Assembly (NCBI RefSeq): GCF_003334785.1
Contig: NZ_QOWV01000023.1
Length of the DNA: 45,913 bases
Strand: one strand, 5' to 3'
From: Escherichia coli
GTDB lineage: Bacteria; Pseudomonadota; Gammaproteobacteria; Enterobacterales; Enterobacteriaceae
Position numbers and translations under genes: made by a program. Positions 5,674 through 45,758 of the stretch are shown here, piece after piece. Position 1 is the first letter of the stretch; each line of letters starts with the position of its first letter. A model generated the notes under the pieces. It worked only from the letters and a program-made list of their open reading frames with translations, did no database searches and was not told where the DNA came from.

Positions 5674-7338
<1,665 letters not shown>

Positions 7339-7425: not shown

Positions 7426-8169
7426 ATGAAAAACACCGAACTGGAACAACTGATTAACGAAAAACTGAACAGCGCGGCGATTAGTGATTACGCGCCGAAT
7501 GGTTTGCAGGTGGAAGGCAAAGAGACGGTGCAAAAAATTGTTACCGGTGTCACCGCCAGCCAGGCTTTGCTCGATGAGGCAGTGCGTCTGGGCGCGGATG
7601 CGGTCATTGTGCATCATGGCTACTTCTGGAAAGGAGAGTCTCCGGTCATTCGCGGAATGAAGCGTAACCGTTTAAAAACGTTGCTGGCGAATGATATCAA
7701 CCTGTATGGCTGGCATTTGCCGCTTGACGCACATCCTGAGCTGGGCAATAACGCACAGCTGGCGGCGTTACTGGGGATCACGGTCATGGGCGAAATTGAG
7801 CCGTTGGTGCCGTGGGGCGAACTGACCATGCCTGTGCCGGGACTGGAGCTGGCTTCCTGGATTGAAGCGCGTCTGGGACGTAAGCCGTTATGGTGTGGCG
7901 ATACCGGACCTGAGGTGGTCCAGCGCGTCGCCTGGTGCACGGGCGGCGGGCAAAGTTTTATCGATAGCGCCGCGCGTTTTGGCGTGGATGCTTTTATTAC
8001 TGGCGAAGTTTCTGAACAGACCATTCATTCAGCCCGCGAGCAGGGATTGCATTTTTATGCTGCAGGTCACCATGCCACTGAACGTGGTGGTATTCGCGCA
8101 TTGAGCGAGTGGCTGAATGAAAATACCGATCTTGATGTGACCTTTATTGATATTCCTAATCCTGCATAA
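7426..8169 (+). CDS. ybgI: NIF3-family metal-binding protein (GTP cyclohydrolase 1 type 2 homolog)
   Basis: 247-aa ORF recognised as Nif3/YbgI family. Confidence 0.9.
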   Translation: MKNTELEQLINEKLNSAAISDYAPNGLQVEGKETVQKIVTGVTASQALLDEAVRLGADAVIVHHGYFWKGESPVIRGMKRNRLKTLLANDINLYGWHLPLDAHPELGNNAQLAALLGITVMGEIEPLVPWGELTMPVPGLELASWIEARLGRKPLWCGDTGPEVVQRVAWCTGGGQSFIDSAARFGVDAFITGEVSEQTIHSAREQGLHFYAAGHHATERGGIRALSEWLNENTDLDVTFIDIPNPA

Positions 8170-23126: not shown

Positions 23127-23304
23127 TAACAAAGAAATGCAGGAAATCTTTAAAAACTGCCCCTGACACTAAGACAGTTTTTAAAGGTTCCTTCGCGAGC
23201 CACTACGTAGACAAGAGCTCGCAAGTGAACCCCGGCACGCACATCACTGTGCGTGGTAGTATCCACGGCGAAGTAAGCATAAAAAAGATGCTTAAGGGAT
23301 CACG

Positions 23305-27360: not shown

Positions 27361-27625
27361 GTAGACCGGATAAGGCATTATCGCCTTCTCCGGCAATTGA
27401 AGCCTGATGCGACGCTGACGCGTCTTATCAGGCCTACGGGACCACCAATGTAGGTCGGATAAGGCGCTAGCGCCGCATCCGACAAGCGATGCCTGATGTG
27501 ACGGTTAACGTGTCTTATCAGGCCTACGGGGACCACCAATGTAGGTCGGATAAGGCGCAAGCGCCGCATCCGACAAGCGATGCCTGATGTGACGTTTAAC
27601 GTGTCTTATCAGGCCTACGGGTGAC
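27361..27625. repeat. Tandem BIME array of REP pairs: ~90-bp unit, ~2.4 copies
   Basis: Units at 27402-27490, 27491-27581 and partial 27582-27621, each GCCTGATG(C/T)GACG...GTCTTATCAGGCCTACGGG...CCACCAATGTAGGTCGGATAAGGCGC.AGCGCCGCATCCGACAAGCGAT. Confidence 0.8.
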
Positions 27626-39292: not shown

Positions 39293-39441
39293 ATCAGAAT
39301 TCTCTTTAAAAAATTATGGGCCGCTCCAGGCCCATAAATTTTTACGCTCCCTTAACTTGCCCTCATTCCCAAACCTCAATCGCGCGCGTATAGTAGCAGC
39401 GTTTAAAAGCTCTAACTTTTGTTGCATTACCGGGATGTAAA

Positions 39442-44287: not shown

Positions 44288-45079
44288 ATGAGCAGTAACT
44301 TCAGACATCAACTATTGAGTCTGTCGTTACTGGTTGGTATAGCGGCCCCCTGGGCCGCTTTTGCTCAGGCACCAATCAGTAGTGTCGGCTCAGGCTCGGT
44401 CGAAGACCGCGTCACTCAACTTGAGCGTATTTCTAATGCTCACAGCCAGCTTTTAACCCAACTCCAGCAACAACTTTCTGATAATCAATCCGATATTGAT
44501 TCCCTGCGTGGTCAGATTCAGGAAAATCAGTATCAACTGAATCAGGTCGTGGAGCGGCAAAAGCAGATCCTGTTGCAGATCGACAGCCTCAGCAGCGGTG
44601 GTGCAGCGGCGCAATCAACCAGCGGCGATCAAAGCGGTGCGGCGGCATCAACGACGCCGACAGCTGATGCTGGTACTGCGAATGCTGGCGCGCCGGTGAA
44701 AAGCGGTAATGCAAACACGGATTACAATGCAGCTATTGCGCTGGTGCAGGATAAATCCCGCCAGGATGACGCAATGGTGGCATTTCAGAATTTCATCAAA
44801 AATTACCCTGATTCAACTTACCTGCCAAACGCCAATTATTGGCTGGGTCAGTTAAACTACAACAAGGGTAAAAAAGATGATGCGGCGTACTATTTTGCTT
44901 CGGTAGTGAAAAACTATCCGAAGTCACCAAAGGCTGCAGATGCGATGTTTAAAGTCGGCGTCATCATGCAGGACAAAGGTGACACCGCAAAAGCGAAAGC
45001 CGTATACCAGCAGGTTATCAGTAAATACCCTGGTACTGATGGCGCTAAACAGGCACAAAAACGTCTGAACGCGATGTAA
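44288..45079 (+). CDS. cpoB: Cell-division coordinator CpoB (TPR-repeat periplasmic protein)
   Basis: 263-aa ORF with signal peptide, coiled-coil and C-terminal TPR-like repeats; formerly ybgF. Confidence 0.93.
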   Translation: MSSNFRHQLLSLSLLVGIAAPWAAFAQAPISSVGSGSVEDRVTQLERISNAHSQLLTQLQQQLSDNQSDIDSLRGQIQENQYQLNQVVERQKQILLQIDSLSSGGAAAQSTSGDQSGAAASTTPTADAGTANAGAPVKSGNANTDYNAAIALVQDKSRQDDAMVAFQNFIKNYPDSTYLPNANYWLGQLNYNKGKKDDAAYYFASVVKNYPKSPKAADAMFKVGVIMQDKGDTAKAKAVYQQVISKYPGTDGAKQAQKRLNAM

Positions 45080-45087
45080 TGCATAAC

Positions 45088-45121
45088 ACACGACCAGAAG
45101 TCGCATTATTTCTGGTCGTGT
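45088..45121 (+). terminator. Perfect 12-bp stem-loop after cpoB; terminator-like but without a clear U-tract
   Basis: ACACGACCAGAA (45088-45099), loop GTCGCATTAT, TTCTGGTCGTGT (45110-45121). Confidence 0.4.
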
Positions 45122-45165
45122 CGTGCGAATCATAAGCAGTTGAGTGATCTACATCGAAATTTTTG

Positions 45166-45193
45166 TTGCGCTCAGGTCTGAAATCAGTAATAT
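45166..45193 (+). promoter_or_regulatory. Candidate sigma-70 promoter of the tRNA operon with GC-rich discriminator
   Basis: TTGCGC (45166-45171), 16-bp spacer, TAATAT (45188-45193), then GC-rich ATGCCGCCG; A/T-rich tract upstream (45156-45164). Confidence 0.35.
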
Positions 45194-45243
45194 ATGCCGC
45201 CGTTGCCACGGGATATCAAACAAACCGAAAGCAACGAAAAAGT

Positions 45244-45319
45244 GGGTCGTTAGCTCAGTTGGTAGAGCAGTTGACTTTTAATCAATTGGTCGCAGGTTCG
45301 AATCCTGCACGACCCACCA
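45244..45319 (+). tRNA. lysT: tRNA-Lys (anticodon UUU)
   Basis: 76-nt GGGTCGTTAGCTCAGTTGGTAGAGCAGTTGACTTTTAATCAATTGGTCGCAGGTTCGAATCCTGCACGACCCACCA, CCA encoded. Confidence 0.95.
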
Positions 45320-45454
45320 ATCGCTAAGGTGGAAGCGGTAGTAAAACGTGAAGGATAACGTTGCATGAGCAACGGCCCGAAGGGCGAGACGAAGTCGAGT
45401 CATCCTGCACGACCCACCACTAACATAGTTAGTTGTAGTATCCAGCGTAGTATC

Positions 45455-45530
45455 GGGTGATTAGCTCAGCTGGGAGAGCACCTCCCTTACAAGGAGGGGG
45501 TCGGCGGTTCGATCCCGTCATCACCCACCA
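45455..45530 (+). tRNA. valT: tRNA-Val (anticodon UAC)
   Basis: 76-nt GGGTGATTAGCTCAGCTGGGAGAGCACCTCCCTTACAAGGAGGGGGTCGGCGGTTCGATCCCGTCATCACCCACCA. Confidence 0.95.
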
Positions 45531-45533
45531 CTC

Positions 45534-45609
45534 GGGTCGTTAGCTCAGTTGGTAGAGCAGTTGACTTTTAATCAATTGGTCGCAGGTTCGAATCCTGCAC
45601 GACCCACCA
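45534..45609 (+). tRNA. lysW: tRNA-Lys (anticodon UUU)
   Basis: Identical 76-nt tRNA-Lys sequence, 3 nt after valT. Confidence 0.95.
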
Positions 45610-45758
45610 GTTTTAACATCGAAGACAGATGTTAAGCGTGTAGGATAACGTTGCGTCAGCAACGGCCCGTAGGGCGAGCGAAGCGAGTCATCCTGCACGA
45701 CCCACCACTAATGACGGTGGGTTCGGTGGAAGTAGTTTGTAGTATCCAGCGCAGTATC

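Follow-up and report, generated by a model that had tools for sequence, protein, structure and literature searches.

The inverted repeat at positions 45088-45121 of the window (the whole 45,913-nt stretch of Escherichia coli DNA that was analysed) probably acts, once transcribed, as a stem-loop that blocks 3' exonucleases and sets the steady-state 3' end of the tol-pal-cpoB mRNA. The original prediction had suggested, among other roles, a 3' stabiliser, and this suggestion is now supported by 3' ends mapped at 45123-45126, by a covarying stem that is selected on the + strand, and by unrelated hairpins found in the same place in other families. The hairpin adds one more example to the known class of stem-loops that protect 3' ends, and public maps of 3' ends already show it. 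Exonuclease trimming, and stabilisation by this particular hairpin, would follow by analogy with what is described for the class.

The element lies on the + strand between cpoB (ybgF; ORF 44288-45079, MG1655 779598-780389), with which the tol-pal cluster ends, and a group of five tRNA genes that begins at 45244 in the order Lys-Val-Lys-Val-Lys. The first of these, lysT, encodes a tRNA-Lys(UUU) on the + strand (45244-45319, MG1655 780554-780629), and transcripts that read through the hairpin first encounter an RNase P processing site at the 5' end of this gene. Window positions correspond to MG1655 coordinates minus 735310, and the hairpin stretch is identical to MG1655 780398-780447. The interval between cpoB and lysT carries no RefSeq annotation. 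The 5' arm of the hairpin, ACACGACCAGAA (45088-45099), and the 3' arm, TTCTGGTCGTGT (45110-45121), are 100% complementary over 12 nt and are separated by the 10-nt spacer GTCGCATTAT (45100-45109). The cpoB stop codon given by the ORF call is the TAA at 45077-45079; 8 nt follow it and the stem begins with the ninth, as first described. Just 5' of the hairpin, the T at 45080 is nearly invariant and the G at 45081 is invariant.

As an RNA, the + strand gains a G-U and a U-A pair (45100-01 with 45108-09), which gives a 14-bp stem closed by a 6-nt loop (45102-45107). The 40-nt hairpin alone folds at -21.2 kcal/mol (z = -7.2), a stability matched by 0/200 shuffled sequences, and in its context the - strand folds less stably (z = -1.6). 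Perfect 12-bp hairpins with loops of 3-20 nt are rare by chance: there are 3 in the window for 0.15 expected per dinucleotide-shuffled window. The fold also added an outer 5-bp helix (45080-84 with 45123-27), which we discarded because it is not conserved (73.8% paired, with many mismatches). The search with the covariance models of Rfam matched no known RNA family, the sole overlapping hit being noise (mir-725, E = 9.6, 14.5 bits for a gathering score of 76). Neither strand has a U-tract after the stem, which is followed by CGTGCGAATCATAAG on the + strand and by GTTATGCATTACATC on the - strand, and the terminator scan was silent. We therefore agree with the earlier view that this is not a canonical intrinsic terminator, since it lacks the U-tract and since the 3' end maps just 2-5 nt beyond the stem.

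The hairpin is very well conserved in the Enterobacteriaceae. The 76-nt region that contains it was found in 5426/5426 complete E. coli genomes, once per genome (median 1), with at least 99% identity in 5362 of them. It is present in the cpoB loci of 80/80 Enterobacteriaceae, each from a different species, with GACCAG...CTGGTC in the same place in each, and the spacer between cpoB and the tRNA-Lys gene has kept a length of about 164-178 nt across these loci. In some of them (L004, L007, L013 and others, from Enterobacter, Klebsiella and Raoultella), cpoB is one codon longer, ATG GGA TGA instead of ATG TAA TG, and the stop codon is 3 nt nearer to the hairpin. The helix is 92.8% paired in the alignment: 6 pairs never vary and 5 have changed on both sides, such as 45091:45118, which occurs as C-G, U-G, A-U or U-A. 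When the outer helix is included, 87.8% of the cells of the resulting 19-pair structure are paired, a value that falls to 34-51% once the 3' partners are slid by 1-3 columns. Among the cells of the 14 stem pairs that are not Watson-Crick, 61 are of the G·U type on the + strand and 1 is of the A·C type. This asymmetry shows that selection acts on the cpoB-sense RNA, not on duplex DNA or on an antisense RNA, and it disfavours both a minus-strand RNA and a DNA cruciform. One E. coli variant (L002) shows the same kind of change, from A-U to G-U.

The core of the hairpin behaves differently from its outer pairs. GACCAG (45092-45097) and TTCTGGTC (45110-45117) are invariant in the 80 loci, as is the loop G at 45103, and the 78 distinct sequences show zero wobble or compensatory changes in the two arm cores, whereas the outer pairs vary freely. 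Every core pair could change by way of G·U, like the outer ones, yet the core is as invariant as the -10, the -35 and the discriminator of lysT. This frozen core is odd, and pure structural selection does not account for it.

Beyond the family, the loci came from a CpoB search seeded with a distant homologue; a search without this seed and representatives at 50% identity gave mainly close enterics or endosymbionts. The synteny of cpoB and tRNA-Lys is kept in Pectobacterium, Dickeya, Hafnia, Proteus, Erwinia and Pantoea, most of which also have the lysT promoter sequence. In Pantoea, GACCAG...TTTCTGGTC and the loop G are still present, with part of the pairing lost. At the same position, Pectobacterium (-21.4 kcal/mol), Dickeya (-22.6), Hafnia (-18.3) and Proteus (-17.0) have hairpins of unrelated sequence that start 6-14 nt after the stop codon, lack a canonical U-tract and end 66-73 nt before the -10 hexamer of lysT (67 nt in E. 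coli). A strong hairpin is absent from the loci of Erwinia tracheiphila and of two further lineages (L082/L083 and L085), which indicates that the element is dispensable in some lineages. In summary, a hairpin at this position has been repeatedly kept or re-invented.

Published maps place the end of the message next to the stem. Mapping 3' ends had been proposed as a way to check the element, and three data sets, from Term-seq and from the TRS study, put the primary cpoB ends at 45123-45126 on the + strand (MG1655 780433-780436). In the Term-seq data of Adams et al. 2021 (PMC7815308, Suppl. file 1), the 'primary' cpoB 3' end is 780434, with 12432 reads in LB at OD 0.4 and a further 5718 under another condition. 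This is position 45124 of the window, 3 nt after the stem; the end printed in bold in that file is position 51 of a 61-nt context, which we checked against sgrS and the valT/lysW junction. The TRS study (PMC10687069, Suppl. Data) lists 'Primary cpoB' ends at 780433, 780434 and 780436, and reports a cpoB 3' UTR of 45 nt whose longest U run is 2 and which reads cover about as densely as the coding sequence. This similar density, and the absence of a nearby start site among those listed, disfavour a small RNA derived from the 3' UTR. Our literature search found nothing relevant on a tol-pal terminator and no paper discussing this hairpin, the TERMITe tables have no cpoB entry, and cpoB is not mentioned in the one ProQ-related supplement searched.

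RNA polymerase nonetheless crosses the hairpin. SMRT-Cappable-seq reads unfragmented 5'-triphosphate transcripts, and that study (PMC6131387) gives as 'novel' operon variants b0740-b0741-b0742-b0743, its extensions to b0744 and to b0746, and b0740 through b0749. These start at 777328, 777472 and 777712, upstream of tolB, pass through cpoB and enter lysT, some of them reaching as far as lysQ. Primary tolB-pal-cpoB-lysT...lysQ transcripts thus exist, and the hairpin neither terminates nor insulates efficiently. The original prediction had also suggested that the element may insulate the tRNA promoter from tol-pal read-through, and this suggestion is not supported, given the same transcripts, which start at tolB promoters and extend into lysT...lysQ. 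Its stated refutation was unimpeded read-through together with a lack of 3' ends around 45121, and only half of this applies: read-through does occur, but the 3' ends are there as well.

A simple path would reconcile these observations. The mRNA would accumulate with a precise end 2-5 nt beyond the stem, an end not formed by efficient termination, since polymerase would often continue through the lysT promoter into the tRNA genes. A cut further downstream would then shorten the longer transcripts, the most plausible enzymes being RNase P (at the lysT 5' end) or RNase E (in the A-rich leader); alternatively, these transcripts may end by occasional termination through Rho or a roadblock. In either case the tail would be trimmed back to the hairpin. 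The use of the downstream cut as an entry site for exonucleases is a step that we infer, and read-through, cleavage and trimming seem the most economical path.

Such an arrangement has parallels in systems where a protein-coding transcript runs into tRNA genes, such as secG-leuU, where mRNA-tRNA co-transcripts are matured by tRNA-processing enzymes. By analogy, the separation of cpoB from lysT could also be a matter of processing. Unlike in the secG-leuU type, a very strong promoter of its own drives the tRNA operon here, and co-transcription is minor and probably incidental. The closest class is that of Dar & Sorek 2018 (PMC6061677), who described stable, U-poor stem-loops just upstream of steady-state 3' ends, with evidence for protection against PNPase and RNase II. 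The cpoB hairpin shares with this class a stable terminator-like stem-loop, the lack of a U-run and a 3' end a few nt downstream, and we propose that it would likewise block PNPase and RNase II. In the class the primary end is made by Rho, loaded on a C-rich region just downstream, whereas the cpoB spacer has no C-over-G bias. Moreover, what lies downstream of the cpoB hairpin is a tRNA promoter and leader, so that trimming would more likely enter at a tRNA-processing cut. The end-forming step is thus probably unlike that of the class, because the spacer lacks this bias and leads into a tRNA, and because read-through is documented.

An intergenic palindrome proposed to act as an exonuclease barrier also recalls the REP/BIME stabilisers, for instance that of malE-malF. 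These are dispersed, multi-copy elements with a consensus of the GCCGGATG... type, whereas the cpoB hairpin is found once in each of the 5426 genomes and lacks the REP consensus, which rules out a REP-like dispersed repeat. As a contrast, a genuine REP-type palindrome (GTCGGATAAGGCGCTAG / CTAGCGCCGCATCCGAC) occurs between two ORFs at 27454-27483.

The shape of the element invites a reading as a leaky, non-canonical terminator or insulator, in which the hairpin, perhaps with NusA/NusG or with roadblock proteins bound upstream of lysT, releases some polymerases 2-10 nt downstream and so limits tol-pal transcription into the tRNA promoter. We regard this as possible, if unlikely. The strong, G+C-containing stem directly after the stop codon and the precise 3' end close to it fit such a role, as does the location, kept across families, immediately before the conserved upstream region of lysT; read-through is common at terminators and thus compatible with partial termination. 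Like intrinsic terminators, the cpoB element is a short-looped hairpin that contains G+C and comes straight after a stop codon, but it has neither a U-tract (on the + strand CGUGCGAAUCAUAAG follows the stem, and no U run near the end exceeds 2) nor an upstream A-tract. The 3' ends of intrinsic terminators lie about 7-9 nt after the stem, in the U-run, and not at 2-5 nt as in cpoB, where primary transcripts continue into lysT and some extend to lysQ. The hairpins of the four other families also lack a canonical U-tract, even though a few T's should be easy to evolve. As for insulation, a moderately expressed operon would hardly be able to occlude one of the strongest promoter types, and the idea is weakened both by the existing read-through and by how little there is to protect at a stable-RNA promoter. 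A classical Rho-dependent end, in which Rho would load past the hairpin and terminate diffusely before or within the tRNA leader, with subsequent trimming to the stem, seems to us very unlikely. The hairpin does fit the description of such ends (stable stem, low U, end immediately downstream). However, the 122-nt spacer between the hairpin and lysT (45122-45243) shows no excess of C over G (C 25, G 27, A 41, T 29) and is followed by a highly structured tRNA, and the region is absent from the Rho regions of Adams et al., whose score over 800-nt windows is uninformative beside highly expressed tRNAs.

The invariant core raises the question of a role in the DNA, given the proximity of the lysT promoter. 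We read a core promoter from the sequence at 45166-45193 on the + strand, with a -35 TTGCGC (45166-71), a 16-bp spacer and a -10 TAATAT (45188-93), followed by the G+C-rich discriminator GCCGCCG. Its sequence, CAGTAATATATGCCGCCGTTGC, is invariant in the alignment (A1); a consensus promoter scan at the set thresholds did not call it. The start inferred from the -10 element is at about 45200-45202, which places the hairpin at about -114 to -81. Beyond the hairpin, beginning 2 nt after the stem, the 15-mer GTGCGAATCATAAGC (45123-45137, no strand assigned) is a predicted Fis site that matches the core of the degenerate consensus GNNYRNNWNNYRNNC. It has all 7 consensus positions in 78/78 distinct sequences, better than any other frame tested, and its centre lies at about -71, a classic position. 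Table 2 of PMC10100675 includes the lysT operon among those activated by Fis, and a recognisable version of the 15-mer persists in distant loci that lack the hairpin. This predicted site probably marks the upstream edge of the activating region of lysT.

Could the palindrome itself, with GACCAG and CTGGTC centred 20 bp apart, be a protein site in the activating region upstream of lysT, made up of further Fis sites or bound by another regulator, with the RNA hairpin as a by-product? Both arm cores and the loop G are as invariant as the -10 and the -35, and the hairpin adjoins the perfectly conserved Fis-consensus 15-mer of an operon listed as Fis-activated (PMC10100675). Pantoea keeps TTTCTGGTC and the loop G despite having partly lost the pairing, and the 15-nt frames that start at 45081 and 45103 keep their G...C ends in 100% of the sequences. 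Against this, the 61:1 wobble asymmetry and the compensatory outer-stem changes characterise an RNA and not a duplex site, and other families swap the sequence entirely while keeping a hairpin. The two extra frames are poor at their inner positions, with the full Fis consensus in only 31% and 0% of the sequences, and the window shows no enrichment of the degenerate pattern (72 matches for 95 expected). The 8-mer TTCTGGTC occurs 7 times for 1.05 expected, but the five copies outside the hairpin (11898, 14097, 26137, 40008 and 43257) are all on the coding strand inside long ORFs. This excess is probably an effect of codon usage, and we rejected the 8-mer as a recurring half-site of a regulator. 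On balance, we consider a purely DNA-level element highly improbable.

Fis-dependent upstream activating regions of stable-RNA promoters, such as those of rrnB P1 and tyrT, have further Fis sites at about -90 to -120. The cpoB hairpin lies in this zone and the predicted site at about -71 abuts it, but only the latter fits the consensus well and the hairpin shows covariation of the RNA type. A combination of both roles is conceivable, though quite unlikely. The 34 bp would be bifunctional, the RNA capping the tol-pal-cpoB message and the DNA core (GACCAG, loop G and TTCTGGTC) joining a helically phased array of sites for Fis or another regulator, centred at about -114, -92 and -72, that activates lysT. 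If true, this double constraint would freeze the core and leave the outer stem pairs free to covary.

We thus favour the protective stem-loop, which fixes the 3' boundary of a transcription unit encoding an important system of the cell envelope and of division. On this reading the boundary is set by the stability of the RNA and not by termination: a protein operon leaks into a tRNA operon, and its end is probably defined by processing and by the hairpin. This leaves the current understanding of termination and of mRNA decay unchanged. In practice, deletions of cpoB, its engineering or the insertion of cassettes should keep 45088-45137 intact, because both the end of the mRNA and the start of the lysT upstream region are there.

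Several other features of the window are worth recording. Within cpoB, GCGGCCCCCTGGGCCGC followed by TTTTG (44343-44364, codons ~19-26, in the part coding for the signal peptide) forms a hairpin of -15.8 kcal/mol (z = -3.6). A published Term-seq 3' end at 779674 (44364 of the window), classed as internal to cpoB or as 'alternative primary' for pal, has an intrinsic-terminator score of 5.16, and a Rho region is reported at 779749. This hairpin resembles an attenuator, one that would uncouple pal from cpoB. Elsewhere, a further perfect 12-bp inverted repeat with a 10-nt spacer (7245-7278, TATTTATGCAAT / ATTGCATAAATA) is A+T-rich, lies between the ORFs 5674-7155(-) and 7426-8169(+), and is possibly an operator. 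Two longer repeats have arms of 15 nt with a 15-nt spacer (23145-23189, AATCTTTAAAAACTG / CAGTTTTTAAAGGTT) and of 16 nt with a 6-nt spacer (39307-39344, TAAAAAATTATGGGCC / GGCCCATAAATTTTTA); the latter, flanked on either side by A- and T-tracts, resembles a bidirectional terminator.

In the tRNA operon, Rfam gives matches to the RtT RNA (RF00391) at 45251-45419 and 45541-45707, with 58.8 and 54.9 bits for a gathering score of 45. Both cover spacers between tRNA-Lys and tRNA-Val, which contain repeats resembling tRNA 3' ends (TCCTGCACGACCCACCA). The valT-lysW junction (45528-45534) reads CCACCACTCGGG here and CCACCACCGGG in the published MG1655 context (780840-780843), where the 3' end given for valT, 780842, is the last nucleotide before lysW, i.e., the RNase P cut. 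This difference shows that the window derives from another strain than MG1655. Finally, the first tRNA-Lys gene of some Citrobacter and Kluyvera loci (L006, L019, L028, L043, L071 and L073) has the acceptor stem GGGGCG.../...CGCCCCACCA in place of the usual GGGTCG...CGACCCACCA, a compensatory change inside the tRNA.
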